DNA of 63,942 nt, the filler included. It is 7 parts of 7 records of this genome, joined end to end, with 100 filler letters (N's around TTAATTAATTAA, not from the genome) between each part and the next. Parts side by side here need not be neighbours in the genome. Positions count along the whole stretch, not along the records: positions 31,779 to 52,029 come from SRR2962707_4576; 6 more parts are not named here. The stretch is one strand, 5' to 3'. Shown here one piece after another: positions 3,301 through 58,360 of this stretch. A program made the position numbers and the translations under genes. Numbering within the stretch: position 1 is the stretch's first letter; the number at the start of each line of letters is the position of its first letter. The notes beneath the pieces are model-generated. The model was not told the origin of the DNA, did no database searches, and saw only the letters and a list, made by a program, of their open reading frames with translations.

Positions 3301-5152
3301 GGATATGTCGAACGCCGACGCCCTCCCGCAGATGGTCCGCGACCATGATGTTACCATCAGTCTTCTCCCAGCCTCCATGCATGTCAAGGTTGCAGAACTC
3401 TGCATCGAGAACGGAAAGCATTTTGTCTCAGCCAGCTACGAGAGTGAAGCAATGCGGGCTCTCGACGAGCAGGCGCGAAATGCCGGGGTGACACTCCTTA
3501 ACGAGATCGGACTTGACCCAGGAATTGACCACATGAGCGCTATGCAAATTCTCGATGAGGTATGCAGCCGTTGCAGTCACGAAACAAACGACGCCGCGGC
3601 TTCATGTGCTTGCGCCTCCGGTATGGTTTTCCCAAAAGGGCTGATGTGGTCGCATTCATTGTGGTTGCTGACGTAGGCACGTGCGAATGGCGAGACCGTG
3701 ACGTCATTCTCCTCCATTTGCGGCGGCCTTCCAGCCCCAGACGCTGCGGGAAACCCGCTCGGCTACAAGTTCAGTTGGAATCCAGCCGGAGTCCTCCAGG
3801 CATCCCAGAACCCAGCCCGCTTCCTTCACCGTGGCAAGCTTCAACAAGTACGTTCTTACACTGGTGGTTTGCGTCAATCGCTATCGATCGCTTGTGCGTG
3901 AGCGCCACAGTGGAAAACCACAATTTCATCCAATCTTTTTGCGCCATCAGGTTCGGGGCGACGAGCTCATGTTGCACTGCCGACCAGTCAAAGTCGGCAG
4001 CTCGGCTCTGAGCCTTGAGCAGCTCCCCAATCGTGATTCCATGATTTATCGCGACATTTACGGCCTCGAAGACGCCCACACTGTGTATCGTGGAACCATT
4101 CGCTACAGGTGTGTTGAGCAGCTTTGCCTACGTCGACACGCAGTCGCTGCCTGCTTGTGATTCCACCACAATCTGATGTTCACTGTTGTGCTCGATGATG
4201 CACGATCGGGGTGGGGACGTACACAGTGGGTTTGCACCGGTTGTGCATTCGTTGTCCCGGATTGGTCTTTTTGATGTGGACCGTCCCTTGTCCGAAGTTC
4301 TGCCAAACTTCGAAGCGGGACGAGTGCCAACCTGGTCGGACCTCATGCTGTCACTTGTGCAGCCACTGGACGGGATGGGTAGGTCTGCCCCAGCTTGCTT
4401 GCCGGCAGTGGCGCTTTCGCGTCTAACTGATTTTGCTCGCGGCGTGTTGCAACAGGCATTCGTCAAACTCTGCGTGAACGGCTGGAGCCAGAGTTTTTGA
4501 GCGCCGACAGCGAGGCCATTGCGGCCACTTGCGTTGAGGCATTTGAATTCCTTGGGCTGTTCGGAACCGATGCCGCGAACGATTCACTTGCGGAGGCCAT
4601 TGAACGCGGTGCCACACCTCGCGATGCCCTGTGCGACCGATTGCAGGTACGTTTGCAGTGTCAACGTTTGAGCTGCATGGATGGGCTTGCGCGTGGAAGA
4701 TTGATCGGCCTTGATGGTGGTGGTGTTGTTGCTCGTGCAGGAAAAATTGAGCTACGAGGACGGAGAGAGTGACATGGTGCTTCTGCACCATGAATTCCGC
4801 ATTCGCTCGGCTGACGGGAAGCGCATGAGGAAAGTGACATCAACACTGCAAGCGTACGTTTCAAGTATCGTTGGTCATGCATCTAAAGTTTGCAAGTACG
4901 TAGTGCCTGGCAAGTTGGGACAAACCGTGAGGGCATATTGCGCGCAGGTACGGAGCACCGTATCCCGACGGGCCTTCTGCAATGGCAACGACGGTCGGTC
5001 TGCCCGTTGGTCTTGCCGCTTTGATGGTCCTCAACGGAACCATCCAGCAACGCGGTGCCGCACTCCCCATCACAAAGGAGATCTACGACCCCATTCTGGC
5101 GAAGCTTGCCGAGATGGGCGTCGTTTGCACCGAACGAGAATTTCCGCTGTAA
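335..5152 (+). CDS. AASS: Bifunctional lysine-ketoglutarate reductase / saccharopine dehydrogenase (alpha-aminoadipic semialdehyde synthase); multi-exon eukaryotic gene, about 16 short introns
   Basis: Collinear exon fragments: LGILRESKNKWEQRAPLAP, LGVKEV, FFSHTTKAQ, RLVAFGRYAGIAGMID, FTGDGKVSRGAQ, GVDTLPAELPKEATDHFG, LGSGMV, NEIGLDPGIDHMSA, SFSSICGGLPAP..NPLGYKFSWNP, GTIRY, DMVLLHHEF. GT..AG introns lie between them. ATG 335; stop TAA 5150-5152. Exact exon edges are approximate. Confidence 0.93.
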
Positions 5153-8300: not shown

Positions 8301-8430
8301 AGCAGAGATTCGACACGCCCCCAAGGTACGCGCACACAGCAAGGATACGGCTACAGGCACGGCCAAACAGCAAAGACAAAGGCACGCAGCAACGGCACTT
8401 CCCAGCAGCAAAGATACGACCAGGCGGCAC
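5324..8430 (-). CDS. VAC14: VAC14 (PIKfyve/Fab1 complex HEAT-repeat scaffold); multi-exon, 5' end truncated at the contig edge
   Basis: Exon fragments: [103 protein letters not shown]. Probable last exon ends at TGA 5326-5324. Confidence 0.9.
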
Positions 8431-15244: not shown

Positions 15245-16297
15245 ATGAACATGCCGCTGAAATCTGAAACACTGGATGCGCAAGCTTCAAGCGCCTGCCA
15301 GCACCGCCAGGAAGCGAGACTGCCCACCGCCGCCGAGTTGCGCCAGCAGTTTCCTGCCGATGAGCAACAGGTGCGGGCCATTGCCGGTTACCGTGATCAG
15401 ATCCGCGCCGTGCTGCACGGTCAGGACGACCGCACCCTGATCGTGATGGGCCCCTGCTCCATTCACGACGAGCAGGCTGCCCTGGATTACGCCACCCGCC
15501 TGAAAGCACTGTCAGACGAAGTCAGTGACCGTTTCCTGATTGTCATGCGCGCCTACCTGGAGAAACCCCGTACCACGGTGGGCTGGAAAGGCCTTCTGTA
15601 CGATCCGGAACGCACCGGTCAGGGCGATCTGAAACAGGGCCTGGAGCGTTCTCGCAAGTTGTTGCTGGCGTTGTCCGAGCTCGGCCTGCCGCTCGCCACC
15701 GAAGCCCTGAGCCCGTTCATGATGGATTACCTGGGGGACCTGGTAAGCTGGACCGCGATCGGCGCCCGTACCACCGAATCCCAGATTCATCGGGAAATGG
15801 TCAGCGGCCTGCCCATGCCTACCGGGTTCAAGAACGGCACCGATGGTGGCATTACCGTGGCCAGCCACGCCATGAAGTCGGCCTCGCATCCGCACCACCA
15901 CATGGGGATCTCCCATAGCGGCGCACCGGTGATGATTTCCACCGCCGGCAATCCGGATACTCATCTGGTTCTGCGCGGTGGCCGGGGTGTGACCAACTAC
16001 GATGAACTGAGCATTGCCAAAGCGGTGGCAGAGCTGGAAAAAGCCGGCGTATCAACGGCGGTGATGGTGGACTGCAGCCATGATAACGCCTGCAAGCAGG
16101 CCGAGCGGCAGGTGGATATCGCCCGGGAGGTGATGGCGCAGAAGCGTAACGGCAATCAGCACATCAAGGGCCTGATGCTGGAAAGCTTCCTGGAATTCGG
16201 CCGCCAGGACGATGGCAAAGAGCTGGTCTACGGGTGCTCGATTACCGATCCATGCCTGGGCTGGGAACAGACGGAGACTCTGATCCGCTCACTGTAG
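15245..16297 (+). CDS. Class I DAHP synthase (3-deoxy-7-phosphoheptulonate synthase)
   Basis: GPCSIHD, RAYLEKPRTTVGWKG, AIGARTTESQIHRE, GFKNGTDG, HLVLRGG, VDCSHDN, SITDPC. Confidence 0.96.
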   Translation: MNMPLKSETLDAQASSACQHRQEARLPTAAELRQQFPADEQQVRAIAGYRDQIRAVLHGQDDRTLIVMGPCSIHDEQAALDYATRLKALSDEVSDRFLIVMRAYLEKPRTTVGWKGLLYDPERTGQGDLKQGLERSRKLLLALSELGLPLATEALSPFMMDYLGDLVSWTAIGARTTESQIHREMVSGLPMPTGFKNGTDGGITVASHAMKSASHPHHHMGISHSGAPVMISTAGNPDTHLVLRGGRGVTNYDELSIAKAVAELEKAGVSTAVMVDCSHDNACKQAERQVDIAREVMAQKRNGNQHIKGLMLESFLEFGRQDDGKELVYGCSITDPCLGWEQTETLIRSL

Positions 16298-16919
16298 AGA
16301 GCAGCAGTTGCCCGGCCAGCAATACCAGAATGCCCCCCATGGTCCGGTCGAGCCAGTGTCCGAACCGGTTGAACCCCCGGCGGACACGGGGGTGGGTAAA
16401 GAACACCGCTACCATGGCAAACCACAGGCCGGTGGCCAGGGCCATATAGATGCCGTATCCGGCCTGCAGCAGAACCGGCGTGCCTGGATTGATGATGACG
16501 GAGAACAGGGACACGAAAAACAGGGTGGCCTTGGGATTGAGGGCGTTTGTTAAAAACCCGAGCCGGAACGCCGCCCAGCCAGTCTGGGCCTGCCCGCCGT
16601 TCGCTTGCACGTGAATGGCTCCGGGTTTGGCCCGCAGGCAGTGCCAGGCGATATAGAGCAGATACACGGCCCCAATCACTTTCAGCACGGTAAACAGCAT
16701 TACCGATTGCTGGATGATCAGCCCGATACCCAGCAGCGAATAGCCCACATGCAGCAGAATGCCGATGCCAATGCCCATGGCGGTCAGCAGGGCATTGCGC
16801 CGGGCCTGGGTCAGTGCCTGGCGCAGCATGACTGCAAAATCCGGCCCGGGGCTGGCCACCGCCAAAAGGTGCACCAGGGCAACGGTCAGAAACTCCAGCC
16901 AGTAATTCTGCACATTCAT
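16242..16919 (-). CDS. LysE/RhtB family amino-acid exporter
   Basis: SPGPDF, GAVYLLYIAW, GFLTNALNPKATLFF; hydrophobic. Its 3' end overlaps the convergent DAHP synthase. Confidence 0.93.
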   Translation of the reverse strand: MNVQNYWLEFLTVALVHLLAVASPGPDFAVMLRQALTQARRNALLTAMGIGIGILLHVGYSLLGIGLIIQQSVMLFTVLKVIGAVYLLYIAWHCLRAKPGAIHVQANGGQAQTGWAAFRLGFLTNALNPKATLFFVSLFSVIINPGTPVLLQAGYGIYMALATGLWFAMVAVFFTHPRVRRGFNRFGHWLDRTMGGILVLLAGQLLLSTVSGSESPSVPSPGMDR

Positions 16920-17094
16920 TCTCCCGCGTGTTTGCAATTGTGCTTGGGTTGTTGCGCCTGCAGCCAGTAACCACAGGGATTTTTTCTGTGATTCCCCTGT
17001 CAGCGGATAATAAGCTTTCTATACTTTACCGAAAGGCTCCTTAAGTTTAATAGCCCAAACCACCTGAAATTTCAGTCAGTCTCCAGGAGGCAGG

Positions 17095-18534
17095 ATGGAC
17101 AAGCGAGAAGTGGATGTAGCGGTTATCGGTGCGGGTACGGCGGGAATGGTCGCCTATCAGCGCGCCCGCAGGGCCACGGACAGGATTGTGTTGATTGAGG
17201 GTGATCAATACGGCACCACCTGTGCCCGGGTAGGGTGCATGCCCAGCAAGTTGCTGATTGCCGCCGCGGAAAGGGCCCATCAGGTGAGGCAGGCGGAAGC
17301 GTTCGGTGTGCTTCCGGGCGATGTGCGCATTGATGGTCCGGCTGTGATGGCGCGAGTGCGTGAAGAGCGCGATCGCTTTGTGGCACCGGTGGTGCGGTCC
17401 ATGGAATCGCTGCCGCAGGAACACCGGTTGATGGGGCATGCCCGATTTGTTGACAGTCATCGTCTTGTTGTGGGTGATCATACCGAGGTCACCGCGGGCC
17501 GGATTGTTATTGCCACCGGCTCCCGCCCCAACATCCCGGGCATTCTGAAAGAAGCGAAAGACCGACTGGTGGTCAACGATGACGTGTTCGACTGGCGGGA
17601 TCTGCCGTCTTCGGTGGCGGTGTTCGGCCCGGGAGTGATTGGCGTCGAATTAGGTCAGGCATTGAGCCGGCTGGGTGTAAAGGTCCGCATGTTTGGCGTC
17701 AGCGGCGGCATTGGCGGTATTCAGGATGAGAACGTGCGGGAGTATGCGCTGGACACCTTCCGTGAAGAGTTTGCCATCAGTCCGAAAGCCGATACCCGGC
17801 GTGTTGAACGCATCGAGGAAGGTGTTCGCATCAGCTGGAGCGAGGGCGGCGAGGAGCATCAGCAAACCTTTGATTATCTGTTGGCAGCTACCGGGCGGCG
17901 ACCCAACATTGATCACCTGGACATCCAGAATGCCGGCATCGAACTGGACGAACGCGGCATGCCGGAGTTTGACCCCTTCACCCTGCGCTGCGGTGACAGC
18001 CATATCTTCATTGCCGGTGACGTTAACAACGACCGCCCCCTGCTGCACGAGGCGGCAGACGAAGGCCGGATTGCCGGCGACAATGCCGGGGCCTGGCCGG
18101 AAGTCCGCACCGGCCGCAGAAAAACTCCCATGTCGGTGGTGTTCACTGAGCCCCAGATTGCCTCGGTGGGGTTGAACATTCGTCAGGTGGATGAGCGTTG
18201 CCAGGGCTGTTTTGCGGTTGGTGAGGTGTCGTTTGAGGATCAGGGGCGCAGCAAGGTTATTGGCAAGAATCGGGGTCTGCTCCGGGTCTACGGCGAGCAC
18301 GGCAGCGGCCTGTTCATGGGCGCCCAGATGTTCGGGCCTGCTGCAGAGCACCTTGCCCACTTGCTGGCGTGGTGCGTTCAAAAGCGAATGACCGTGAGCG
18401 AAATGCTGGAGATGCCGTTCTACCATCCGGTGATTGAGGAGGGGCTGCGAACCGCAATTAAAGACCTGAGCAAGAAACTCCGGATAGGCCCTGCGCCAGG
18501 GGAGGGTTGCATGGATTGCGGGCCGGGTGTGTAG
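17095..18534 (+). CDS. Dihydrolipoyl-dehydrogenase-like flavoprotein disulfide reductase
   Basis: GAGTAG FAD motif, TTCARVGCMPSK redox disulfide, GPGVIG, C-terminal FYHPVIEE. Confidence 0.92.
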   Translation: MDKREVDVAVIGAGTAGMVAYQRARRATDRIVLIEGDQYGTTCARVGCMPSKLLIAAAERAHQVRQAEAFGVLPGDVRIDGPAVMARVREERDRFVAPVVRSMESLPQEHRLMGHARFVDSHRLVVGDHTEVTAGRIVIATGSRPNIPGILKEAKDRLVVNDDVFDWRDLPSSVAVFGPGVIGVELGQALSRLGVKVRMFGVSGGIGGIQDENVREYALDTFREEFAISPKADTRRVERIEEGVRISWSEGGEEHQQTFDYLLAATGRRPNIDHLDIQNAGIELDERGMPEFDPFTLRCGDSHIFIAGDVNNDRPLLHEAADEGRIAGDNAGAWPEVRTGRRKTPMSVVFTEPQIASVGLNIRQVDERCQGCFAVGEVSFEDQGRSKVIGKNRGLLRVYGEHGSGLFMGAQMFGPAAEHLAHLLAWCVQKRMTVSEMLEMPFYHPVIEEGLRTAIKDLSKKLRIGPAPGEGCMDCGPGV

Positions 18535-38055: not shown

Positions 38056-38828
38056 TTAGGCTACGATCGCGCCCTGGAACTTCCGTCCCGAGACAGTCAT
38101 GTTGCCGGCCCATGCAATCAGTTTGACCAGCGCGTCCTGGTTGGTTGCGTACCGGTCAGGATTGAGCGGCACCATGTTCCGCTGCGAATGCGGGCGATAG
38201 TGCAGGAACTCAGTGTTCAGGAAGTACATGTGCGCGGCCGGCACCGAGCCGTTCAACCCGCCGTCGGGAACCACATCGGCATTCTTGAACTTCAGGTTTT
38301 CAAAGCCGGCGGATGCAAGCTTCTCATTCGTGAAGCGCTGATTTGCCTGCAGCGATTCCTGATAGAAGTTGAAATAGGTGTTGTCGGCCACGATGAGGTC
38401 CGGCTGATTCCGATTGCGCGAGCAATCGAGATGCAACTGGTTCATCGCCGTCTGGATGGTCGATGCCCCCGCCGTCAACGCATTGGCGGAAAAGTCGTAG
38501 ACTTGATTCTGCCAGAACGTATAGGTGGACGAATCGATACCGCCTACGGTGCCGGTGCCCGCATCCGATACGAGCAATTGAAGCCCGCCGACCTGCTTGC
38601 CGCCGGTGCCGGTGCCGTCCGAATAGATGCCGTCCGAAAGGTTGTTGACCATCTCGGACTCGCCCGCCTCGATGCGGGATGCCATCAGGTCGATAACCTG
38701 CTCGCGGCCGGCGTTCTGCAACATCTCCAGCCCGTTCATGCTGATAGCAACCGCCGCCTGCTTGATGTTGAACTCGGCGGACGTCAGCATGTCGTCTTGG
38801 CTGATATTGATGTTGTCGTAACCGCTGT
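38056..38828 (-). CDS. Major capsid protein, exon 2
   Basis: (Y)SGYDNINIS...GLEMLQNAG.EQVIDL...IYSDGTG.GGKQVGGL...AGFENLKF...MYFLNT...NQDA..KLIAWAGN. No credible start of its own; joins exon 1 in frame. Confidence 0.92.
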
Positions 38829-39849
38829 CACTTTTGTTATCGCGACGGCTCTTTATCCATCGCTTCTGCATGTCACCATGCAGGTCGGACTATATCTTCA
38901 CCCCCGCTTGAGGGTGCCGGGCGCTCGTGGGCGGGTTATCGTTTCCTCACCGCCTAGTCTCTACACCTTCCGCGCCCCTGGGGCCTCTCGGCCTTACGTG
39001 CGCGGCTTGGCTCGGGATTGACTGTATAAATGGAACTTTCCATGATACAGTGTTCCCCCGAATTCACCCAGTTTGTCTGGACTTAGCATGAAAACTTCCA
39101 ATGTGACTTGTCCACAATGTGGCAAAGACTTTTATCGGAAACCTTCGTATCTAAAAAAGGTCAACGTCGCTTTCTGTTCCGGTCGCTGTTACGGGGATGC
39201 CTTAAAGTCAGGCGCGTTCCCGCGAGAGATGCCAAAGCGCCCCAAAACGGGGCAAATGCTTTCCTGTGTCGTCTGTGGACAAGAGTTTTACCGCTCCGGC
39301 AGCTATATCGCCCGCGGCGTAAAGCAAACCTGCGGGGCTTCCGAGTGCAAAAGCGAGTATTTCTCCGGCGCCAACAATGCCTTCTGGGGCAAGAACCATT
39401 CCGACGAAACTAAGGCGAAGATATCTAAAGATCGCCGCGCAAAGCCCCGAAAGAAGCCGGGGCCGCCGAAGGGCTATAAACACACACCAGAAGCTCGCGC
39501 CAAGATATCGACCGCACTGCGCAGACGGTGGCTTGAAAGCCGAGACAAGATGCTCGAAGCCGTCCGTAAGGGCGGAGCCTCAAAACGGGGAATAAGTGAA
39601 GAGCCGCGTTACCGCAGCAATTTCACCCCCCTTCAAAGGCGCGAGTGGAAAGACAAGGAATGCGCATGGTGCGGAACAACCGAAGAGTTGACCCTAGACC
39701 ACATCATTCCCGTTATGGACGGCGGCTCGAAAAAGAGAACCAACGCCCAAACCTTGTGCATCTCCTGTAATAGGTGGAAACTTATTTACGTTGACCGGCC
39801 CCGCTACCTAGCGGGGCGTGCTGAGTCCTCAGTACCTATGCGGCATTCA
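38829..39849 (-). mobile_element. Group I self-splicing intron (1021 nt) in the major capsid gene
   Basis: P1 CAGUACU/GGUACUG with a U.G at the splice site; P2 GGACUCAGCA/UGCUAAGUCC; P3 CUGGGUG/CGCCCGG; P4 UUCGGG/CCCGAG; P5; P6a CCGCGC/GCGCGG; R GUGUAGAGACUA; P7.1; P8 CACCCUC/GGGGGUG; S AAGAUAUAGUCC; P9 with a GUGA loop; P9.1; P9.0; terminal G at 38829. Confidence 0.93.
39018..39046 (+). promoter_or_regulatory. Putative sigma70 promoter for the antisense endonuclease, embedded in intron P5
   Basis: TTGACT (39018-23), 17 nt, CATGAT (39041-46); about 40 nt upstream of ATG 39088. Confidence 0.6.
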
Positions 39850-39876
39850 AGTACTGGAAGTTCCCCGGGCCGCTGA
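39088..39876 (+). CDS. Intron-encoded HNH homing endonuclease with two zinc-finger modules and NUMOD3 motifs (antisense to the intron)
   Basis: CPQCGKDFY..FCSGRC, CVVCGQEFY..TCGASEC; NAFWGKNHSDETKAKIS and GYKHTPEARAKIS; CAWCG....LTLDHIIPVMDGG....NAQTLCISCN. Confidence 0.9.
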   Translation: MKTSNVTCPQCGKDFYRKPSYLKKVNVAFCSGRCYGDALKSGAFPREMPKRPKTGQMLSCVVCGQEFYRSGSYIARGVKQTCGASECKSEYFSGANNAFWGKNHSDETKAKISKDRRAKPRKKPGPPKGYKHTPEARAKISTALRRRWLESRDKMLEAVRKGGASKRGISEEPRYRSNFTPLQRREWKDKECAWCGTTEELTLDHIIPVMDGGSKKRTNAQTLCISCNRWKLIYVDRPRYLAGRAESSVPMRHSSTGSSPGR

Positions 39877-40048
39877 AGGTGATTTCCTCAACGATCGTCC
39901 GTCCGCCGGAGAAAGGACGCGAACGTCCGCGTTCCCGGAGCCGGAACAAAAGTGCGGTGTTGTTGGTCAGGTTGTCTGCCAACTGGCCACTACGATTCCG
40001 AAGAGTCGTGGTGACAATATCGTCAAAGTTTGAGTTAGGAGTGACCAT
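39850..40048 (-). CDS. Major capsid protein, exon 1
   Basis: MVTPNSNFDDIVTTTLRNRSGQLADNLTNNTALL.RL..RG..RPFSGGRTIVEE...GNFQY. 199 nt + 773 nt = 972 nt, i.e. 323 aa. Confidence 0.92.
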
Positions 40049-41925: not shown

Positions 41926-42170
41926 TGCACGCTCCCAAGAGAATTACCGATGCTGGATGCCTCGGCCGGGTTGTCCAAATAATGCCGGAACACGCCATGT
42001 ATTCCGTCCAGCGCCGTTTTGTCGTCCGGCGCATCGACGGCCACGGAAAATGCTATGTGCGATACTTGCGATAGGACATGCCCGTGGGGGCTCATCCGAA
42101 CGGTGTTATCGACTATGGCAAACCAGAATTCGTCCGGTCGCTTCGGGTCTACGCCTTCAATTTCAATCAT
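41922..42170 (-). CDS. Hypothetical phage protein
   Basis: ATGA overlaps at both ends. Confidence 0.6.
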   Translation of the reverse strand: MIEIEGVDPKRPDEFWFAIVDNTVRMSPHGHVLSQVSHIAFSVAVDAPDDKTALDGIHGVFRHYLDNPAEASSIGNSLGSVH

Positions 42171-44629
42171 GCCGCCAACAGCAGAATCGCAATGGCCTCG
42201 TCTTCCGCGCGTTGCGCTGCCTCTTTGGACACCTCCGCCGCCAGCGCCTCTATTCGGCTCTGGATCCTCGCTATGCGGTCGTCTATCGCCTGTACCGTGA
42301 CAAGCGCTTCGGCTTGGGCCTGTGCAACCGCCTGCGGTTGTTGTGCTTGTGCTTGGCGGCGCTGCTTCGGTGTGGCGCGGGATTTCTTTCTGCGCACAGG
42401 CGGCGCTACAGCGGACTTCTCTGCGGCCTCGCGTTCCTCGACAAGCTCCTGAACCTGACGGCGCAACTCTTCCAACTCGCGGCGCTTGCGCGTGAAGTTG
42501 CGGCTAACGGCAGGGCCGCCACTACCTCCGCCGCCACCGCTCGCCTGCGGCACGTCTAAGTAGACAGTCGCCTGACCTTCGGTAAGGGTCAGAACATCCG
42601 TGTTCGTGGCGACATTGACATCGCCCGCGAACTGTATCGCCGCCTGTCCCTCGGTGAGTGTAAGGGCGTCGGTGTTCGTCTGAACGTCCACGTCTAGCGC
42701 GACACCCGCCGTACCCTCTGTAAGGGTCAGGGCATCCGTAGCGGTCTGTACGTTTATGCCCAGGCTAACCGTGGCCTGATTTTCCGTCAGCGTTAAAGCG
42801 TCTGTGGTTGCCACCACATCGACATCCAGCGAAACCGCGGCCGTATTCTCCGTTAACGTGAGAAAATCGGTCGTGGCGGTAACGTTGGTATCGCTACCAG
42901 TCTGGACGGCGGCTATGTTTTCAGTGAGTGTCAGCGCATCCGTCGATGTCGCTACATTCACGTCCAGCGCGACGGTGGCCGTCCCTTCCGTAAGGGTCAG
43001 GGATTCGGTGCTGCCAAATACCTCGACATCGTTCGATATCGTGGCTTGGTTTTCGGTCAACGTGAGTGCGTCGGTAGATGTCTGAACATCCACATCCAAC
43101 GTTATCGCCGCGGTTCCCTCAGTCAGCGTGAGAGCATCCGTTGTCGCGGACACGTTGACATCCGACACCAGAGAAATTGACGCCTGATTCTCAGTCAGGG
43201 TCAGCGCATCGGTTGACGTAGAAACATCCACATCCAGCGCAACGGATGCGGTGTTTTCAGTTAGCGTCAGAGCATCAGTGGATGCCTGAACATTCGTATC
43301 CGGCGAGGCCACAAACGGCTTGATCGCGTACTGAACCGCAACCCATTGTTCACTCGCAGCAAGCGTAAATGCCGCATTGCCACTGGAACCAGCCGTCTCG
43401 ACAACCTTGACGGCCAATTCCTGCATGTTACCGAAGCTGGACGAAATCGGACAACGCCCGGTATCCCGTTCCCAACCAGTAGGCTCCGTACCAGCAGCGT
43501 CCTCGTCATCGTCATCCGCGCCGAACGTCGCAACGACAAGCGAATTATCCGTCAGCGTCGTTATAGCATTCGCGGTCGGGGCGGAATTGGTGCCTGTGCT
43601 CGATGTCCCGACCACCTCGATAAAGTCGGTAGTGTCGCAAAGCTCCTGCCAGTAACAACGCGCCTCGGCAACGATAGTGTCGCTGCTATCGAAGTTCAGC
43701 GTAACGCTTGCATCGCCCTGATCCGTCGTAACATCGCCAGCAGCGGCATACTTGGACAAGACGATATGACGGACTGCCGTACCGTTGGCTGAATTGTCCT
43801 CAACCGTCCAACCTGAGGGCGTGCTGGATAAATCCCCATTCTCGACAGTGACATGTATCGTAAGCGGATCATCCTCAGCGACATTCGGAGGAAGATCAAC
43901 GACAAGCGATGTGGCACCGCCAGACGTGGAAAACGCATTCGACTTGAGGCGCGGGAACGTAATCGTGTCCACGCCTGAAATAGCATAATGCAGCCCAAGG
44001 TGCTGGTCGCCACTGGTCGCGCCGGTGAACGTCGCCGCCGCAACCGTTCCTGCTGTCGCGTTATCCTTCTCGCCGACATGCAACGACGGGTCAGCAGTCC
44101 CACCATCCAATATATGGACCAGCGTATACCCGGACGGCAACGTGGTGTTATCGCCACCGTCATCGTCACAAAGACACTCAGCAATAACGAGAGCATCGTC
44201 TTCAATCAGCTCAAGCGGCGGACAGACAACCGACGTAAACCCGTCATCCGGCGATCGGGAGTTAATCGCCAAAAATGGATCGACTAATCCCGTGGGAACG
44301 CCCGAAATGCGCTTAATTGAAATTGCCGCATCCGTGCTGATCTCGGTCGTAAATGTATAGTTGCCGCTTTCCGAAGCCGCCTTCTTGTGGAAGACCCCCA
44401 CCATACCAGTGGACAGCGTGTTGCCGTCCATAATCTTGATGATGGCCTTACGCGTCCAACCTGAAGGCCCGTTGATAAGGGCATTCGTGCCGTTGCCGTA
44501 GTTACCGTTAATGGTAACGGTGGCGATCAGCCGGTCGTCATCGGTAATCCCGCTTGGGGCCGTCGCGACATGCGAGGTGCTGGTATTTGTCGCTGTTGCC
44601 GCAGCCGACTCAAGGACAGGGACGGCCAT
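42167..44629 (-). CDS. Repeat-containing virion fibre-like protein (820 aa)
   Basis: Two related N-terminal beta domains (..PSGWT..), 11 TDALTLTE repeats, Gly linker, coiled coil, acidic-hydrophobic C-terminus EDEAIAILLLAA. Confidence 0.8.
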   Translation of the reverse strand: MAVPVLESAAATATNTSTSHVATAPSGITDDDRLIATVTINGNYGNGTNALINGPSGWTRKAIIKIMDGNTLSTGMVGVFHKKAASESGNYTFTTEISTDAAISIKRISGVPTGLVDPFLAINSRSPDDGFTSVVCPPLELIEDDALVIAECLCDDDGGDNTTLPSGYTLVHILDGGTADPSLHVGEKDNATAGTVAAATFTGATSGDQHLGLHYAISGVDTITFPRLKSNAFSTSGGATSLVVDLPPNVAEDDPLTIHVTVENGDLSSTPSGWTVEDNSANGTAVRHIVLSKYAAAGDVTTDQGDASVTLNFDSSDTIVAEARCYWQELCDTTDFIEVVGTSSTGTNSAPTANAITTLTDNSLVVATFGADDDDEDAAGTEPTGWERDTGRCPISSSFGNMQELAVKVVETAGSSGNAAFTLAASEQWVAVQYAIKPFVASPDTNVQASTDALTLTENTASVALDVDVSTSTDALTLTENQASISLVSDVNVSATTDALTLTEGTAAITLDVDVQTSTDALTLTENQATISNDVEVFGSTESLTLTEGTATVALDVNVATSTDALTLTENIAAVQTGSDTNVTATTDFLTLTENTAAVSLDVDVVATTDALTLTENQATVSLGINVQTATDALTLTEGTAGVALDVDVQTNTDALTLTEGQAAIQFAGDVNVATNTDVLTLTEGQATVYLDVPQASGGGGGSGGPAVSRNFTRKRRELEELRRQVQELVEEREAAEKSAVAPPVRRKKSRATPKQRRQAQAQQPQAVAQAQAEALVTVQAIDDRIARIQSRIEALAAEVSKEAAQRAEDEAIAILLLAA
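42555..43300 (-). repeat. 11 tandem coding repeats of 22-24 aa
   Basis: Consensus DV(N/D)VxTxTDALTLTE(N/G)(T/Q)AxVxL. Confidence 0.9.
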
Positions 44630-45089: not shown

Positions 45090-47663
45090 TTACTCCGAAA
45101 TGGATTGAACTGTTTCGACACCGACGGGACGTCCACTCCCGTCCTTCACAATGCGCTTGGGCGCACTCAACATGCGGACAGCCTCCGCAATGGATTCCGA
45201 TGTGCTCGCCACGCTTTCGAGCACCGAATTCATTGTCTCGGCCTGCCCCGTCGCCATAGACGCGATGGTCTCCGCCGTTTGGGCTAGTTCTTCCTTGGCA
45301 TCGAACTGCACAACCGTTTGCGGGCCTGCCTTTTCCGCTGCCTGTTCCGCCTTCAACGCGATATTCGCTGCTGCGTTTTCTCGGTCGAACTCAAGCCTCG
45401 CGGCATCGCGGGCGTTCTGGGCCTCGATCTTGGCCATTTCTACCGCCTGCTTCGACTGGATTTCGGCGAGACGTAATTCATGCTGTCGAGCGCGGTCCTG
45501 CTCATCGAATTGCAGTTTGAGTTGTTCGCGTTCCTCATCAGCCGCCTGTTTCTCGGCTTCCCGCTGCTCTTTCTGCTGATCAAGCGCAAGTTTCCCCGCC
45601 TCCGCTTGTGCGGCTTGGGCCTCCACCTGCTGTTGGGCCGCAAGGGCCGGATCCGGCTGCTGCCCGCCTTCTGGGTTGTTCAAGTCCTCGATGGCTTCTT
45701 CGAACACGGCCTCCATCTGCCGCCCGGCTCTAAAGCCGCGAACGCCGAACAGCATCATCTCCGCCATGAGGGGCTTCAATTCGGGTGCCTGCTGTGCGGC
45801 TGCAACGGCTTGCTGAATGAAACCGCCGGCAGCTTGAAGGAATTCAACGCGGGACTGCTTCTCGGCCTGCTGGTCCTCGAACACCGTCGAACCGGTCTCG
45901 ATGTCGATACGGAAGGTTCGCAGCCGGTCCTCCCTGAGCATTTCCAACGCCTGCTCGAAAACCTGTAATGCGTTGGGCGGAACCTCGATCGAGGCCGGGT
46001 CCGGGAGTTCTTGCGCTTGCTCTTGGGCCGCCTGCACCACTTCCTGAGGGTCAGAACCTTGAGCAACGGCCTGCTGAGCCTGAGCCGCGGCCTGCTTCCT
46101 TTGCTCTAACGCCGCTTGCTGTGCCGCAACCGCCTTCTCATGCTCGGCGTTGAGCGTCTTGGCCTCTACCGTCCGCATCCAGCCGGACATCTCAAGCAAT
46201 GTTCTATCGTCGAAATGCTCAATGAGAATTTCGGCCTTGATGCGGAGAAGGTCGCGGATGAAGCGGTTTATTTCCTCTTGCCGGTCCTGCAGCCGTAGTG
46301 TGGCGAACTGGCCCTTAAGCTGCGACTGACCCAACTTCTCCCGGGGGTCCACCTGTCCCCGCACGATGTCCGATATGCCGGATATCTCGAACAGATCGTT
46401 CTTGATCTGCTGCCGGGATTGCGACAGCGATACAAGGACATCGGCAACCTCCTTGATGGGGAGGAAGTCGATTGCGCCTTCAAGCCCACCTTTCCCGGCA
46501 AAGGCGGCCCAGCTATCGACCGGGATGAGGTTATTGTCTGACCCCTCAATAATCCGCTCCAATTCAGGAACGGAACTGTCATAGACACCCGCTATTCTGA
46601 GCGCCTTGGTGAGCAAGTAGATGCGCTGCGTCAGCTCATCGAGTTCGATCGCCTGCGCCTGATACTGTGCATAGTCCGGCACCGGGACAAGCGTATCGGT
46701 CGTCATGTTGGCATAGAGCGGACGCGGACACGGGAAGAAGCCTTCAAGCCCTAACGGGTCGTCCTTCTCGTCCAGCGGCCCTTCGGTGAAGCCCTCGGAT
46801 ATCCAGAGCGCCTTCTTGCTGGTCCGGTCCCAAATCTCGTACACCTCGGCGCGCTTGAAGACGCTGCTGTGCTTCTGCGCCACCTCGTCCTTAACGCCAT
46901 GGATCTGTTTGGTCAGCCCGACCTTGTTGCCGATTTCCTCGCCGAACCGCTCTACCAACTGGTCCCGGGTCAATAATTCACGCTTCCAAACAGCCGGGAC
47001 TTTCTCCCAGCGCGGCGCCGGCGTATGTCCGAAGTCACCCCAGGCGATGTGGTCGCACACCACGTCTTCCCGGACCAAGGGCCGGAACGGCTCGCCCTCG
47101 ATAAAGGCTTCCCCGTCATCATCGAACTGAGGCTCCCCCTCAACCGGACTGCCGTCAAGGTCGGTGAATGTGTCTTCCTCGGTCTTCTGCAGAAATATCC
47201 GCTCGGTTTTCTCCTCACCGAACACCGGCACATAGCGCACCCACGCCTGCCCGCGGGCCGTAAGAAGGTAGTCGTCGCGAGCAGCAAATATGGTGGCGTT
47301 GAAGTCGTATACGTCCATGGTGAAGGACAGAGCGCGCTCTACGACAAGCGATGCGGCACCCGCCACCGGGTCGCGATCCTTGAACCTCCGGCTTACGTCC
47401 GGGTTGGGCGTGCGGGAGAACAACGCAGGGCCAAGAGTCTGGACATTTGCCCAAAGGATATTGAACCGGCGTTTCTTGGTGCGGTCGCCAATGCTGGTTT
47501 CTTCGTCGCGATACCGCTTGACGATAGCTTTGGACCGCTTCTCCCAACTGTCGAACTGCCCCTCGTATGCCTTTATTTCGGCAAGCCAGCGGGACACCTT
47601 TCCTGCGGCGTCAGCCCCAAAGTCCTTCGGTGTTTCAGCGGATGGTGCCGAGGTCTCAGCCAC
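45090..47663 (-). CDS. Portal protein
   Basis: Follows terL; FNILWANVQTL.P, G.AWVRY, VYEIWD, DDPLGLEGFFPCPRP, EISGISDIVRG, long C-terminal coiled coil. Confidence 0.85.
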   Translation of the reverse strand: MAETSAPSAETPKDFGADAAGKVSRWLAEIKAYEGQFDSWEKRSKAIVKRYRDEETSIGDRTKKRRFNILWANVQTLGPALFSRTPNPDVSRRFKDRDPVAGAASLVVERALSFTMDVYDFNATIFAARDDYLLTARGQAWVRYVPVFGEEKTERIFLQKTEEDTFTDLDGSPVEGEPQFDDDGEAFIEGEPFRPLVREDVVCDHIAWGDFGHTPAPRWEKVPAVWKRELLTRDQLVERFGEEIGNKVGLTKQIHGVKDEVAQKHSSVFKRAEVYEIWDRTSKKALWISEGFTEGPLDEKDDPLGLEGFFPCPRPLYANMTTDTLVPVPDYAQYQAQAIELDELTQRIYLLTKALRIAGVYDSSVPELERIIEGSDNNLIPVDSWAAFAGKGGLEGAIDFLPIKEVADVLVSLSQSRQQIKNDLFEISGISDIVRGQVDPREKLGQSQLKGQFATLRLQDRQEEINRFIRDLLRIKAEILIEHFDDRTLLEMSGWMRTVEAKTLNAEHEKAVAAQQAALEQRKQAAAQAQQAVAQGSDPQEVVQAAQEQAQELPDPASIEVPPNALQVFEQALEMLREDRLRTFRIDIETGSTVFEDQQAEKQSRVEFLQAAGGFIQQAVAAAQQAPELKPLMAEMMLFGVRGFRAGRQMEAVFEEAIEDLNNPEGGQQPDPALAAQQQVEAQAAQAEAGKLALDQQKEQREAEKQAADEEREQLKLQFDEQDRARQHELRLAEIQSKQAVEMAKIEAQNARDAARLEFDRENAAANIALKAEQAAEKAGPQTVVQFDAKEELAQTAETIASMATGQAETMNSVLESVASTSESIAEAVRMLSAPKRIVKDGSGRPVGVETVQSISE

Positions 47664-47684: not shown

Positions 47685-49091
47685 TCACACCATCCCTACA
47701 TTGTCGTTCCGTTGCTGGTCCCGCCACAGCCGGTCCAGCGTGACGTTATCGATGCCGTCAATTGGCTTGGGCTTCTCTTCAACTTCTTCCTTCGGCACAC
47801 GCAAGGCGATGGCGAGCATTCGAAATGCATCCGCATAGTGCGATTCCCATGAGTGCAGAGGTGTCTTTTTGAAGACCTTGCGGTCGTCGTCCCATTCCCT
47901 GCGATACCCGCGCAAAGCTTCGATGCCGTCAGCGCATTCGGACTTGTCGAACCAACAAAGCGGGAGGGTCTTGCGCACGGCTTGTATGCCGTCCGTCTTG
48001 CTCAGGTTGGGGACGAGTTTCATACGAACCCCGTAGCCCCAAGCCTGCTCTAGTATGCTTTTCCCGCCGCTCGCGAGGGTCTTGGGCGCAGCATCCCATG
48101 GCACCCAATGGCAGGCTTTCATGGGGTCGCCGTAAGACCAACTTCGCTCCTTGGCCTTGTCGTGTATGCGGTCACAGTAGAACTCAACGTCCTGACCATG
48201 GTTGGCTTCACAAGCGAGAATTCGAACCTCGCCGGCGACAACCTGGAACCACCATATCGTCGTGTCGTCCGTGTAACCCAAATCCCACGCCGTTTGGACA
48301 GGAACGAGCGGTTCGTAGGCCAGCCCCTCTACAAAGCGGCCCTTCTGTTCAAGGAAGGCCATGACCTTGGCGTAATAAGCGCCCGGCAATGCAGCATCAA
48401 AGGAACAGAAATACTCCTGCTCATACAAAGCGCCGCCATCGTCCTCGCCGTACTCCGCAACCATTTCAAGCCGGATATTCGCCAACTGATCTGGCGAAAA
48501 CACGGGGCTATCATTCGCTGTGATGATTTCACCAAACCAATCCGGCTGCTTCCTTGCCAACTCCAGCAGGCGGTGCGCGTGGTTCCGGCCACGGGGAGTG
48601 GTAATGAACGTGGCCCACCCGCCGTTTTCTTCCAGAATCGGCCGCAGGTAGGCCCATGCATGCGGATCCGCTAACGCATATTCGGAGAACGTCACCCCGA
48701 TAGGCGGCGTGCCCATGAGGCTATTGTAGTTATCCGAGCCGACTACCTGCCATGTGGCCCCGCTCTTGAAGCGGATAAACATATCGGTGTCGCGGGTGTT
48801 CTCGCGTATCTCATGCGGAAACGCTTCGTCAATTCTGCGCTTGCCGGTTCTCGGATTGATGGCGTCCCAAATCGCCTTTCGGGCATTCGCCGCCTGCGGG
48901 AGCATGTGCCAGTAACCACCAACCCGCTCGTGCGCCTTAATGGCCGCGGTATGAAGCGCTATCTCGTCCTTGCCCCACCGACGATGCGCTATCTCTACCG
49001 CACGCTTACCGCCCCGCTCCAGATACCCCCATAACGGCATTTGGTCGGGGCGCGGCCGCCAGTTATTCGCCGGCAGCCGGATCGTCGACAA
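47685..49091 (-). CDS. terL: Terminase large subunit
   Basis: Walker A HRRWGKD, Walker B VTFSEY, motif III TTPRG, QEYFCSF, nuclease WDLG..D.T, SHYADAFR. Confidence 0.95.
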   Translation of the reverse strand: MSTIRLPANNWRPRPDQMPLWGYLERGGKRAVEIAHRRWGKDEIALHTAAIKAHERVGGYWHMLPQAANARKAIWDAINPRTGKRRIDEAFPHEIRENTRDTDMFIRFKSGATWQVVGSDNYNSLMGTPPIGVTFSEYALADPHAWAYLRPILEENGGWATFITTPRGRNHAHRLLELARKQPDWFGEIITANDSPVFSPDQLANIRLEMVAEYGEDDGGALYEQEYFCSFDAALPGAYYAKVMAFLEQKGRFVEGLAYEPLVPVQTAWDLGYTDDTTIWWFQVVAGEVRILACEANHGQDVEFYCDRIHDKAKERSWSYGDPMKACHWVPWDAAPKTLASGGKSILEQAWGYGVRMKLVPNLSKTDGIQAVRKTLPLCWFDKSECADGIEALRGYRREWDDDRKVFKKTPLHSWESHYADAFRMLAIALRVPKEEVEEKPKPIDGIDNVTLDRLWRDQQRNDNVGMV

Positions 49092-54738: not shown

Positions 54739-57700
54739 TTAAATATGGGCCGTGCGTTTCACGACGATGGGGGTGTAGTCAAGCGCATCCCCTCCATCAA
54801 GAATCAACTGTCCATGGGCCTTTTTCTTTCGTTTCTTTTTTCGTTTTTTCTTGTCTCGGTCCTTCATCGATTTTGCCTTTGTCAGTCGTTTTCGTTGCTG
54901 GGGGGACTGGCTCCGTTTGCGTCTGGTCCGCATTGCCACATCGTGATCGTCATCATCAAGAACATTGCGACCACTGGCGTCATTGGTCGGGGCAGTTTCT
55001 ATATTTGCCGTGGCTGGTGGCTCTTCTCGTGCGAGGGTGACGCGCTGCTTGCTGGAAACCTGCTTCGCTGCAGCCTTAGTTTTCTTGTGTATCGTAACAG
55101 TAGTGTCGTCGTCCAATGACGAATCCACCGCACAAACGCTGGACTCGGGCCTTTGTGGCGAGTCATCTGGCTCATGGGACTTGGACCGTGTTCGATGATG
55201 CGGGTTTTCTTGAAGCATTGTGCCCATGACTGCATCTTCGAGCTCGGCGTCAACGGTAGTATCCGCAGGTAGCGCTGCTTGCTGGCTAGCGCTGGATGAC
55301 ATTGCAGTGGTTTCGGCTGGCGTTGACGATGGAGATGTTTTTGCCCTGCGCTTGGGTGCACGTTTTGTTCCTCCTCGAGTGGATCGTCGCCTTGTTTTTT
55401 GGGTACCCATATTGGAGGGAAGGGCGTTAAACTCTTTCTCCAACTCAGTGGCTTTTGAGTTGCGCTTGACTGTTTTTTCACGAGCGCGGCGCACTTGTTT
55501 GGCTTTCATGCGCGCCTTGCGGCGACTGATCTGTAGTGTATCTTTGCCAAGGACGGCTTTCTCGACCACTATGTTGGTTTCGTCGTCAAATTCCTCCTTG
55601 TGCACGTCAATGCCTTTGGAGTTTAAGCTATCTGCACGAGAATTCCTGCTGATTGGCGAAAGCTCGATGCCGAGGGAAGACGAGTCTTGCAAAAGCTCGC
55701 TGGCAAACAAATCATCCTCAGCTTTAGCACTTGCAGCCGCCCTTTGGCGACGTTCAGCTTCTTCGTACTCGCGAATGGCTTGCTCCGAGTCCAATCGCTG
55801 CTGGCTCGGCACACCTTGCCGAGGGCCCTCCGATTTTGATTCAATGCTTCCATCGCCTGACTTCGACCAATTTCCTGACGGCAAATCACTCTGCTGTATT
55901 TTATTTTTCTTGCGGCATTTGTGGCGACACGCGCACGCCACCCACACCACGACTATGAGCAAAACCACCAATGAAATACCAACAGCAATAATCCAAGGCA
56001 CGTCTTTGTCGGTGATGGGCGAGTCACCCTCTCCCGAAGCGACTGAATCGTGTTCGCTAGTGACCATCATCTGCGTTGTCAACATTGCTGTGCGTCTGGT
56101 AGTGCTGCTTTCACCAAAAACGGTATTGATAGCTCCCAGCAAATCAATAACAGAGTCACCGTCAATCAAGTCTGTGACTTGTACTTCCACAAAAACGTTA
56201 ACCACTGGTGGGGATGAACCTGTGATTTCGAGACCAAGATCCGGACCAAGTTCAGTGAGATCCCCAATACCCGGCGGCGCACTGGTCCCACCTGCGGTCC
56301 CCAAATCGTCCTTGACGCCACCAACAAATGCCGAGTCGATTGACAAAGTGTGTGCTTCGCAATCTTCTGTCACCTTCAACGATTTGACTCCGCAGCTTCC
56401 CGACTCACTGCAAGCTCCATCGCACACAGCAGAGGTTAAAAGGTTGCCAACCCATTCTGTTGCACCCTGACCGCAGACGTAGGTGCTTCCGTTTGAAACG
56501 TTCCCAATCGTCAAATTAAATGAAACATTTGCGCCTTTTCGAAGCAGCACGGAAATATTGGCCGTCCGGAATGTTACGCTTCCACAACCATCGTTAGTGG
56601 TTGCTTCAAGCGCTATGCTGGTGTTGGGTGCGACAGCAGTGCCAGCTGTGCTGTTCACTTTATTCAGGCTTGAGCACATGTCTTGGTTGTTAGTAAGGTG
56701 CGTGCAAAGTGCCAAGGCGGTGTTCGAAAAATTTGATTGGGGGTTGATGTTTAGCACTGTCACACCCGAATTGCTTGCCGTGGTTGCGATCGTGAGAGGT
56801 GCGAATTCGGTACTTGCAGTCACCGTTGTAGGAGCAATGAATCCTTGAAGACGCAACTCGAAAACAAATGTCGAAACGTCATACAGATGCCGCAAATGAT
56901 TCGGCGCCACCGTTGTTGAGGGAGTGCGCAATAACGTGGTGGCTGGGACTGGCTTCGATGAAATTTTGGTCGTCAGCACAGCATTACTGGTTGATACCGT
57001 TGGCTGAAGGACGTGCCCGGTGGTAGTGACAGGTGCCGCACTTGAAATGTTAAAAGGAAATTCAAAGAAAGGCCGACGGCAAGTGAATAGTGCATCGCTG
57101 AGGTCCGAAAACACGGAGTCGCGCACATAGTTTCCATATGGTCCGTCAAAATACAGCAAAATTTCAAGATGAGGTACACATGTCGCCATAACAGCACACG
57201 GCAAGAAATTATCCCCAGCCTGGTCCCTTAAAAAGCCAAGGACTCTCTGCTTGAATAAAGCCCCGTTGGAAGCACCCGATTCCGAGGCGCTCACGCAAGC
57301 GGTGTGTGCTTGGTCACGATAGTCATACAGAACTACAGCAGCCGCGTCTTGGTCGTCTGTACAAGTAGCAACGGCAGCATGCGTTGTAGAACTCGGCATA
57401 TAGGAACCGCACACAAGGTCGCTGTCTCCATCATTGCCTGAATCGGCAGGACATGAGTCCACGTTTCCGCAAATATTGTCGGAATCGGCGTCATTGTCAG
57501 CATCCGTTGGACAAGAGTCAAGATCAGCACAGATACTGTCGCTGTCGATGTCGTTCTCAGAGTCTTCGGAGCAGGAGTCAAGATCCCCACACAAATTGTC
57601 ACTGTCTCTGTCATTGTGTGAATCGAACGAACAACTATCCTCGTCGGCACACAGCGTGTCACTGTCAGCATCATTTTGCCCATCCGCAACGCATGAATCG

Positions 57701-58360
57701 ACATCAGCGCAGACGCTATCAGAATCCACATCGTTGTAAAAGTCATTTGGGCAAGAGTCTGTGTTTTCGCAAACCGTGTCGGAATCCCAATCGTTGTTCG
57801 CGTCGTCAGGACAGCTGTCGTCATCGCGGCAACGATTATCACCATCAACATCGTTCGTGGCGTCATTGGGGCACGAATCCAAGTCACAGCATACCATGTC
57901 TGAGTCAGCGTCATTGGCTCCATCAAACTGACAGGAATCAACATCGCCACATATTGTGTCCGAGTCAGTGTCATTTTCTGCATCGTTGCAACAAGAATCA
58001 GCGCCGCAGCACAACATGTCTGAGTCGGCATCATTGAACATGTCACCGATACAGGAATCTGCGTCATCGCAAATGGAATCCGAGTCGGGATCATTTGCAG
58101 CGTCGTATGGGCACGAATCCATGTGTGCGCAGATTCCATCTGAATCTGCGTCGTTTTCTGCGTCGTGACGACATAATTGCCGATCGCCACAGACGGCATC
58201 AGAGTCAGCATCATTCTCTGCATCGTGTGCGCAGGAGTCGTTTTCACCACAGAGGGTATCTGAATCAGCATCGTTCATGATATCTTGGGAACATGAATCC
58301 ACATCACCACAAATGACGTCCGAGTCGACGTCATTACTCTCGTCATAGGGACAAGAATCA
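54739..58360 (-). CDS. Single-pass membrane protein with thrombospondin type-3-like Asp/Cys repeats (5' truncated)
   Basis: 20-aa repeats DSCxxDxxNDxDSDxxC, Thr-rich stalk, TM segment PWIIAVGISLVVLLIVVVWVAC, long charged tail. Confidence 0.85.
57405..58360 (-). repeat. About 15-16 tandem 60-nt coding repeats (TSP3-like)
   Basis: DSC-x2-D-x2-ND-x-DSD-x2-C periodicity running to the contig edge. Confidence 0.9.

Follow-up and report, generated by a model that had tools for sequence, protein, structure and literature searches.

The closest described counterpart of the element considered here, a predicted group I intron with an antisense HNH endonuclease gene inside a phage major capsid gene, comes from the Cluster J mycobacteriophage LittleE. 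The LittleE capsid gene carries an intron of ~820 bp, whose splicing was demonstrated by reverse-transcription PCR and by N-terminal protein sequencing over the junction; the intron was called 'most likely group I', and its endonuclease open reading frame (ORF) lies on the bottom strand (Pope et al. 2013, PMC3706429). The element that we describe lies in a 63,942-nt stretch of DNA ('the window' throughout, meaning that stretch at its full length) and shares with LittleE the host gene, a position directly after a U, a terminal G and the antisense endonuclease ORF. It differs in that the LittleE ORF is LAGLIDADG-like in the text and HNH in the figure legend of the same report, and in that LittleE is an actinobacteriophage siphovirus with an unrelated capsid family; the two are likened here by layout, not by intron sequence (PMC3706429). 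A second precedent is the Lactococcus phage Tuc2009, whose major head protein is among the intron entries in the relevant part of Tourasse and Kolsto (2008, PMC2504315; cited in PMC3706429). It too has a group I intron in the gene for its major head protein, although the host is a low-GC Gram-positive bacterium. With these two precedents, and with head genes a frequent host in the census given below, the novelty implied by an earlier interpretation of the window from its letters alone (the sequence-only reading) was set too high. The layout of a capsid-gene intron with an antisense endonuclease is already published, and the window is a further example of it.

More distant systems share parts of this layout. 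Group I introns are carried by the td and nrdB genes of T4 and by the DNA-polymerase gene of SPO1, as stated by Pope et al. (PMC3706429). These resemble the window in pairing a group I ribozyme with a homing endonuclease at a conserved site of an essential phage gene, and are unlike it in that the host genes serve DNA metabolism and the endonuclease ORFs are on the sense strand. The T4 and SPO1 introns have an extra P7.1-type helix, and their endonuclease ORFs lie in peripheral loops, the HNH enzyme of SPO1 being I-HmuI. In the jumbo phage PhiPA3 the intron-encoded HNH protein gp210 sits, as in the window, inside a putative group I intron of a conserved essential gene, there an RNA polymerase gene; Birkholz et al. 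(2024, PMC11620839) state that introns with endonuclease genes insert where essential genes are conserved. An endonuclease gene opposite to the ribozyme strand is also described for the L2066 group I introns of nuclear ribosomal DNA; unlike the window, these are eukaryotic, encode His-Cys box endonucleases and produce messenger RNAs (mRNAs) that bear spliceosomal introns (PMC9548176).

We are confident that the major capsid gene of the window is interrupted, within the codon for Tyr67, by a mobile group I intron that carries an antisense HNH-NUMOD3 gene and is predicted to splice and to home. Exon 1 occupies positions 40048..39850 of the minus strand (199 nt, corresponding to 66 codons and the first base of Tyr67, and ending in U), and exon 2 occupies positions 38828..38056 of the same strand (773 nt, including the stop codon). 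Between them lies the intron (39849..38829, minus strand), which is 1021 nt long, begins UGAAUG and has G38829 as its last base. Joining the two exons by script yielded 972 nt encoding 323 amino acids (aa), with a single, terminal stop, so that the exon ends and the frame given in the sequence-only reading proved exact. Both pieces match the major head protein family PHROG 9953: residues 3-66 of a 70-aa ORF, in which the exon-1 frame runs into the insert (40048..39836, minus strand), match profile positions 4-67 (E value 4e-15), and residues 14-271 of a 271-aa ORF, which starts at an ATG of the intron and contains exon 2 (38871..38056, minus strand), match positions 67-328 of 329 (E 2.2e-83). 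On the profile the first match ends and the second begins at position 67, so that the pieces adjoin; together they cover positions 4-328, and they belong to a gene that sits in a head module. Pfam held no family for either ORF. The label HK97-type may apply to this capsid family and is best taken as putative.

The position of the junction was fixed with homologous proteins. A search with the exon-2 protein gave 7602 proteins at E <= 0.001 among 8000 scored candidates, and the best 120 of these, 66-77 % identical to exon 2, were aligned across the junction. Within this set 46 proteins are 323 aa long and 46 are 321 aa long, and the length of the spliced product, 323 aa, is the modal one. The spliced product reads ...GPGNFQYYSGYD..., as the full-length homologues do, and residues 61-75 contain no gap column; four of the 120 homologues are gapped there, and those printed (P0016, P0024 and P0044) are N-terminally truncated entries. 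The YSGY motif at the split is unbroken in the other 116. With Tyr67 conserved and with different bases on the two sides of each splice site, the junction can be placed to the nucleotide, after U39850 and after G38829, which puts the insertion inside the Tyr67 codon (TAC U|AC). The expectation that intron-less homologues read continuously through NFQYYSGYD was borne out, one of them being P0121, which is discussed below. The nearest named relatives of the capsid protein, at 29-51 % identity, are from the Myxococcus phages Mx9 and Mx8 and from Bradyrhizobium, Stenotrophomonas and Brucella phages; those in Mx8, Mx9 and the Brucella phages are annotated as major capsid or virion proteins.

The insert has the anatomy of a group I ribozyme. 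We scanned the whole 63,942-nt window on both strands against Rfam at gathering thresholds, and a single match was obtained, to RF00028 (threshold 50 bits), at positions 39133..38866 of the minus strand. This match, which corresponds to the ribozyme core P2-P9, scores 85.7 bits (E 2e-20) and spans model positions 1-253 of 253, as would be expected of the group I intron claimed from the letters. The P1 hairpin (39856..39830, minus strand) pairs the exon sequence CAGUACU (39856-39850) with the guide GGUACUG (39836-39830). Both the minimum-free-energy and the centroid fold contain the U39850.G39836 wobble at the 5' splice site that the sequence-only reading had predicted, together with two further pairs that reach into the intron, and the terminal G that it predicted is present as G38829. 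The stop codon of the exon-1 frame, UAG at 39838-39836, falls where the P1 loop meets the guide, partly within the latter. A candidate P10, seen by inspection of the sequence, would join the loop CCGC (39843-39840) to GCGG of exon 2 (38825-38822). Just after P1, a perfect 9-bp hairpin (39817..39798, minus strand), detected as an inverted repeat and in the fold, is a peripheral helix, possibly P2, and lies opposite the sequence that codes for the C-terminal tail of the HNH protein.

At the 3' end of the core, the P7 strands GACUA (38959-38955) and UAGUC (38892-38888) are invariant across the window and two related introns, those of loci L086 and L087. A covarying P7.1 hairpin, GGCGG...CCGCC, separates P7 from P3'. 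Extra P7.1/P7.2 helices at this place are typical of group I subgroup IA, of which the intron may be a member. P9, with a GUGA loop (38883-38866, minus strand), and the P9.1 hairpin GCGAUGG/CCGUCGC (38863-38842, minus strand) are both present in the fold, P9.1 shows compensatory changes in L086 and L087, and P9 and P9.1 together have a z score of -3.2, which upholds the P9.1 pairing proposed earlier. A 12-nt tail after P9.1 ends at the terminal G38829, directly before exon 2.

Other explanations of the insert were rejected in turn. An intein is incompatible with an insert that is out of frame and carries stops, a group II intron had no Rfam match, and a programmed frameshift would have to bridge a gap of 1021 nt. 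We also set aside, as a conserved element, a 9-bp long-range helix that could close the ORF loop (39159-39167 with 39788-39796): it is one of 15 comparable inverted pairs in the intron, one of its arms coincides with the codons for the conserved YVDRP of the HNH protein, and its second arm is in an N-terminal HNH segment that is missing from both L086 and L087.

Between P1 and P2 the intron carries an HNH homing-endonuclease gene (39088..39876, plus strand; 262 aa from the ATG, with a TTG at 39073). The HNH gene named in the sequence-only reading was confirmed by Pfam HNH and NUMOD3 matches; its orientation on the plus strand, antisense to both the capsid gene and the intron, had gone unstated. 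The protein consists of two Cys-rich repeats, two NUMOD3 motifs (PF07460, E 3e-10, both above the cut-off) and a C-terminal HNH domain, which matches HNH_5 (PF14279) at 3e-10 and 40.3 bits against a cut-off of 27.5, and HNH (PF01844) at 2.9e-8 and 34.2 bits against a cut-off of 21.4. In an alignment of nine sequences, residues C192, C195, D204, H205, N219, C224, C227 and N228 are invariant. We take these Cys, D-H and N residues of the C-terminal region to be zinc ligands and catalytic residues. Among 359 candidates there were 63 homologues, the best being P0122 at 78 % identity. The gene is interlocked with the ribozyme at both ends: its first ~15 codons overlap P2, and its last nine codons and stop cross P1 and extend 27 nt into exon 1. 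AT skew is strongly positive across 39300-39700 and negative over the flanking minus-strand genes, a change of sign that fits real coding of the HNH gene on the plus strand. A consensus scan gave one promoter-like site of sigma-70 type, TTGACT-17-CATGAT (39018..39046, plus strand), which lies 42 nt before the HNH ATG and whose -35 hexamer is the antisense of AGUCAA, a conserved stretch of the ribozyme core. A homologous site is present in L087.

The site that holds this ORF is empty in close relatives, as seen in P0121 and in the 116 uninterrupted homologues among the 120 aligned. Filled copies of the same site are also found. P0016 and P0024 are each exactly 271 aa long and 71-73 % identical to exon 2, and both start with the leader of the window's own 271-aa ORF, MQKRWIKSRRDN, followed by SGYD. 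This leader is a translation of P9/P9.1, which means that these diverged capsid genes hold the same intron in the position that it has in the window. P0121, by comparison, is an uninterrupted capsid protein of 313 aa that reads ...GPGNFQYYSGYDTLGV..., belongs to the same 90 % cluster as P0016 and is identical to its exon-2 part at 255 of 256 positions. Judged from these sequences, P0121 and P0016 represent an intron presence/absence polymorphism, for another capsid gene with the same intron, and the existence of a 99 %-identical intron-less allele points to intron mobility. A relative of the HNH protein, P0137, comes from a contig of 59,109 bp, and the contig of P0016 has this length too. Its tail reads ...SVPMRQSSTG..., compared with ...SVPMRHSSTG... 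in the window, and this common tail comes from reading P1 and the 5' splice site on the opposite strand, so that the antisense layout is shared as well. P0137 lacks a NUMOD3 segment of ~60 aa and keeps the HNH domain; it may come from an endonuclease gene in decay.

The loss of this segment from P0137 is one reason to consider that the intron splices but that its HNH gene is silent, degenerating or re-purposed, for phage exclusion or DNA packaging, and that the intron is inherited mainly vertically. The evidence for a promoter is weak, and the cargo varies within the lineage, in which HNH genes of either orientation, LAGLIDADG genes and introns with no such gene are all seen; both points would agree with this. 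So would a role in interference competition, which an intron HNH can have according to Birkholz et al. (2024, PMC11620839). We regard this alternative as unlikely, since the window HNH protein keeps its Cys, D-H and N residues and has both NUMOD3 motifs above the Pfam cut-off, the P0016 capsid has a nearly identical counterpart that lacks the intron, and the same intron with HNH is found in capsids that are only 55-77 % identical.

When viral contigs were searched with the HNH alignment, 40 loci emerged. Two are close, L086 and L087, with HNH proteins that are 59 % and 56 % identical, respectively, to that of the window. In both the order is scaffold gene, capsid exon 1, antisense HNH, ribozyme core and capsid exon 2. 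Their introns of 843 and 870 nt, respectively, follow a U and end in G, and their spliced capsid proteins of 327 and 343 aa contain no stops and align without gaps. The insertion in L086 and L087 (site B) is 9 nt downstream of that in the window (site A), where it splits the codon for the second Tyr of YSGY (GGG U|AY), and P1 is formed with another guide than in the window: GGGUUGA/UCAGCCC for L086 (z -2.6), GGGUUA/UGGCCC for L087 (z 0.1). A parallel is provided by TMP-IVS1 and TMP-IVS2 of Bacillus cereus-group prophages, homologous group I introns that occupy different, closely spaced positions in a single structural gene and whose P1 and guide are altered to suit each position; these are unlike the window in that the host is a tape measure gene and the intron lineage a different one (PMC2504315).

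When aligned, the cores of the window, L086 and L087 have a mean column identity of 75 %. RNAalifold predicted 61 pairs for the three, 17 of which are kept through changes on both sides, with P7 invariant; the double-sided changes fall in P4, P5, P6a, P7.1, P8, P9 and P9.1. P3 was mis-aligned by MAFFT and was read by eye, as CUGGG/CCCGG in the window, UGGGG/CCCCA in L086 and CGGGG/CCCUG in L087. These compensatory changes are supportive of a conserved structure, and coming from only three sequences they do not amount to statistical proof. The last 300 nt of the three introns are 72-74 % identical, compared with 63-69 % for the exon DNA, and the capsid proteins of the window and of L086 or L087 are 55-56 % identical. 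Nucleotide searches gave little further: a blastn comparison of the intron with the 80 capsid loci of the first viral scan produced no match, and an exact 20-mer of the intron 3' end, found in 0 viral, 1 genome and 2 metagenome contigs, was set aside as yielding chance matches of 20-23 nt.

Together these data allow us to propose how the element works. The late capsid transcript would fold into P1-P9.1, an external guanosine would attack after U39850, and the freed exon 1 would then attack after G38829 to give a ligated mRNA that encodes the 323-aa capsid protein, as the anatomy of the intron suggests. The HNH gene would be transcribed from its own promoter, counter to capsid transcription. 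Its product would presumably cut intron-less capsid alleles of co-infecting relatives, and repair of the cut allele would copy the intron in, which is homing.

Several points weigh against an actively splicing and homing intron. Capsid splicing and endonuclease activity are both deduced from sequence. The P1 stretch folds no better than shuffled sequences (z -0.83), and P1 therefore rests on its position and on the pairing rule at the splice site, not on energy. P10 is weak, with 4-5 bp that are offset by 3 nt from the junction on both sides. RF00028 scores only 54 bits against L086 and gives no match to the L087 intron even at E <= 0.01. On the endonuclease side, the C-terminal tail of the HNH protein that enters exon 1 is unconserved except in P0137, and the Shine-Dalgarno-like sequence before the HNH ATG, read from the sequence as GGA, is weak. 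Promoter-like sites in the region are no commoner than chance (1 found, 0.7 expected), and the homologous site is absent in L086; for these two reasons the HNH promoter is put forward as a candidate.

A more radical view is that the insert is a decayed remnant that no longer splices, which would make the capsid gene a pseudogene in a defective phage or prophage. Neither terminal repeats nor transfer RNA genes, which could mark the window as a complete phage, were found in it. We consider this very unlikely, given that the RF00028 match is full-length and well above threshold, that neither exon is damaged and their joined frame is free of stops, that compensatory changes preserve pairing in two diverged relatives, and that both the HNH ORF and the whole head module are intact. 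It is extremely improbable that RNA splicing plays no part and that the 70-aa and 271-aa fragments are translated separately and then assemble: both ORFs exist and gene callers have deposited 271-aa versions (P0016 and P0024), but the 15-aa leader is a translation of P9/P9.1 whose conservation tracks RNA pairing, in L086 it is out of frame with exon 2, and the split falls inside the YSGY motif, which is unbroken in 116 of the 120 homologues.

The reading of a spliced and mobile intron in the capsid gene has practical consequences. Automatic gene calling splits the capsid gene into the 70-aa and 271-aa ORFs, which are separated by a stretch without a long sense-strand ORF, and adds the HNH gene. 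This is the outcome foreseen in the sequence-only reading, and the 271-aa form has indeed been deposited, for P0016 and P0024; the protein would therefore be overlooked or cut short in capsid-based classification and in proteomics. Furthermore, several hundred capsid subunits per virion would hinge on efficient ribozyme splicing of a late mRNA.

The gene lies in a head module whose members are all on the strand of the capsid gene, in the order terminase, portal, 820-aa ORF, scaffold-like ORF and capsid. Upstream of the capsid gene are the large terminase (47685-49091, minus strand), the portal (45090-47663, minus strand), the 820-aa ORF between the portal and scaffold-like genes (42167-44629, minus strand), which has no PHROG family at E <= 1e-5, and the scaffold-like ORF (minus strand), which is acidic and 405 aa long. 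A virion structural protein (PHROG 29386) is encoded after the capsid gene. Elsewhere in the window, a 1187-aa ORF (54739-58302, minus strand) is also without a PHROG family at E <= 1e-5.

Insertions were found at further positions of the same capsid family. Of the 80 capsid loci from the first viral scan, 69 are contiguous, 7 have no exon-1 match and 4 (L005, L007, L008 and L028) are interrupted at a third site, ...AEFN|KQAAVAV..., about 20 codons downstream of the window's. None of these four has a match at the Rfam gathering level. The 318-nt insert of L028 has no ORF and comes just under the gathering score of RF00028 (646-899, plus strand; 49.4 bits, E 3.5e-10), while the 945-nt insert of L007 contains a sense-strand LAGLIDADG-like ORF (PF14528, 2.3e-5; 3122-4000, plus strand), and the gaps in L005 and L008 equal that of L007 in length. 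A fourth site is occupied in L132 (2154-2986, minus strand), between codons 13 and 14, by an insert with a group I match of 93.9 bits and an antisense 193-aa Cys-rich ORF without a Pfam family; the spliced N-terminus aligns with homologues without gaps. PHROG 9953 capsid genes thus have four insertion sites in total.

We evaluated which genes host this intron lineage by searching viral contigs with a narrow pattern of 47 positions from P7(3')-P9-P9.1 that are common to the window, L086 and L087. It occurred at 13 loci (L126-L138), two of them the contigs of L086 and L087, and all 13 are in head genes. There are seven distinct new contexts, and in every one the downstream exon belongs to a head gene. 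Six encode major head proteins: PHROG 3437 with an antisense HNH gene (L126), PHROG 283 with no ORF seen (L128), PHROG 1328 with no ORF seen (L129) and again at a second position with a sense HNH gene (L133), PHROG 9953 at the fourth site described above (L132), and PHROG 267 with a sense LAGLIDADG gene (L135). The seventh is the head decoration protein PHROG 122 (L130). A full-length Rfam group I match was obtained at the pattern site in five of these seven loci, at 52.7-93.9 bits; L126 had no RF00028 match, and in L135 the match lies upstream of the endonuclease ORF and not at the pattern site. The same intron lineage is accordingly present in at least six head-gene families.

Two of these loci have unusual structures. 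In L135 (7989-9115, minus strand) the RF00028 match, which is full and of 50.4 bits, precedes the sense LAGLIDADG_2 ORF, and a second P7-P9-P9.1 signature follows downstream; the arrangement may be one intron with a duplicated 3' part or may be two introns. L128 has two RF00028 matches (7812-8040 and 8101-8375, minus strand; 52.7 and 50.4 bits) about 60 nt apart and upstream of a single major head gene exon (PHROG 283), which may be two introns in tandem.

A relaxed pattern of 28 positions, from P7(3')-P9 only, matched at least 116 stretches in viral contigs (L139-L248), which form a first-come sample; with the earlier loci this gives at least 124 sites in at least 123 loci. After 14 sites with shorter frames were dropped, at least 110 sites, among the matches listed, had a downstream frame of at least 60 aa. 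These fall into 56 clusters, 25 of them with several members (79 sites) and 31 singletons, and the counts that follow also apply to the matches listed. Within the multi-member clusters, head genes account for 44 sites in 10 clusters. Primase/helicase, thymidylate synthase, tape measure, large terminase, DNA polymerases, NrdD and the ribonucleotide reductase (RNR) small subunit account together for 20 sites in 8 clusters, endonuclease frames, kept apart from the host-gene classes, for 9 sites in 4 clusters, and frames of no family for 6 sites in 3 clusters. Head genes are therefore the commonest host with the relaxed pattern too. The singletons are mixed, the top 25 of their 81 matched families including HNH, RNR, RNA polymerase and two major head families.

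To compare the introns themselves, we took the ribozyme segments that flank the pattern in the 18 classified clusters and recorded the nearest foreign neighbour of each. The nearest foreign intron was in the same category for 13 of the 18 clusters, and for 9 of the 10 head-gene clusters; shuffled labels reached 13 in 455 of 20,000 trials. This result is suggestive only of a head-gene lineage, as the sample is of sites first met, the contigs are non-independent and large clusters act as hubs.

These data lead us to a tentative, and on present evidence rather doubtful, hypothesis. An intron lineage defined by the shared P7-P9-P9.1 might have specialised on head genes, crossing between unrelated capsid families and between neighbouring codons while its guide was re-tuned and its cargo swapped, while the recurrent antisense orientation, with a promoter whose -35 hexamer is complementary to a conserved ribozyme segment, would free endonuclease expression from late capsid transcription. 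The bias would reflect either selection for striking the gene that a competing phage can least spare or reverse splicing into the most abundant late mRNA. No description of a capsid-specialised intron lineage was found in titles and the opening parts of abstracts in the open literature, subscription journals and supplements not being covered. The apparent specialisation of the lineage on head genes of unrelated families is the most interesting lead from this work. Capsid genes would be a good system for the study of changes of intron site and of the origin of antisense endonuclease genes, because there are four sites in one family, at least six head-gene families are affected and head genes are the commonest host among the at least 110 sites sampled.

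Two annotated phage genomes contain related features. In Vibrio phage 1.232.O (MG592596.1, about 7531-7801; L085:2268-2538, plus strand) an unannotated full-length RF00028 match of 83.1 bits begins at the 3' end of the annotated major capsid coding sequence (CDS), and a sense HNH gene comes next. That CDS covers only profile positions 36-260 of 356 of PHROG 1357; a second capsid exon was not found, the downstream 72-aa ORF being without a PHROG match. In Clostridium phage phiCP13O (JF767208.1, about 16098-17165; L084:1505-2572, plus strand) an unannotated gap of ~1.07 kb, in which Rfam gave no gathering-level match, separates gp23 and gp24, two CDSs annotated as 'minor tail protein'. Over its final 72 nt the gap matches the 3' end of the window intron at 79 % identity, with the match stopping at the first base of gp24, and gp23 and gp24 are probably the two parts of a split tape measure gene.

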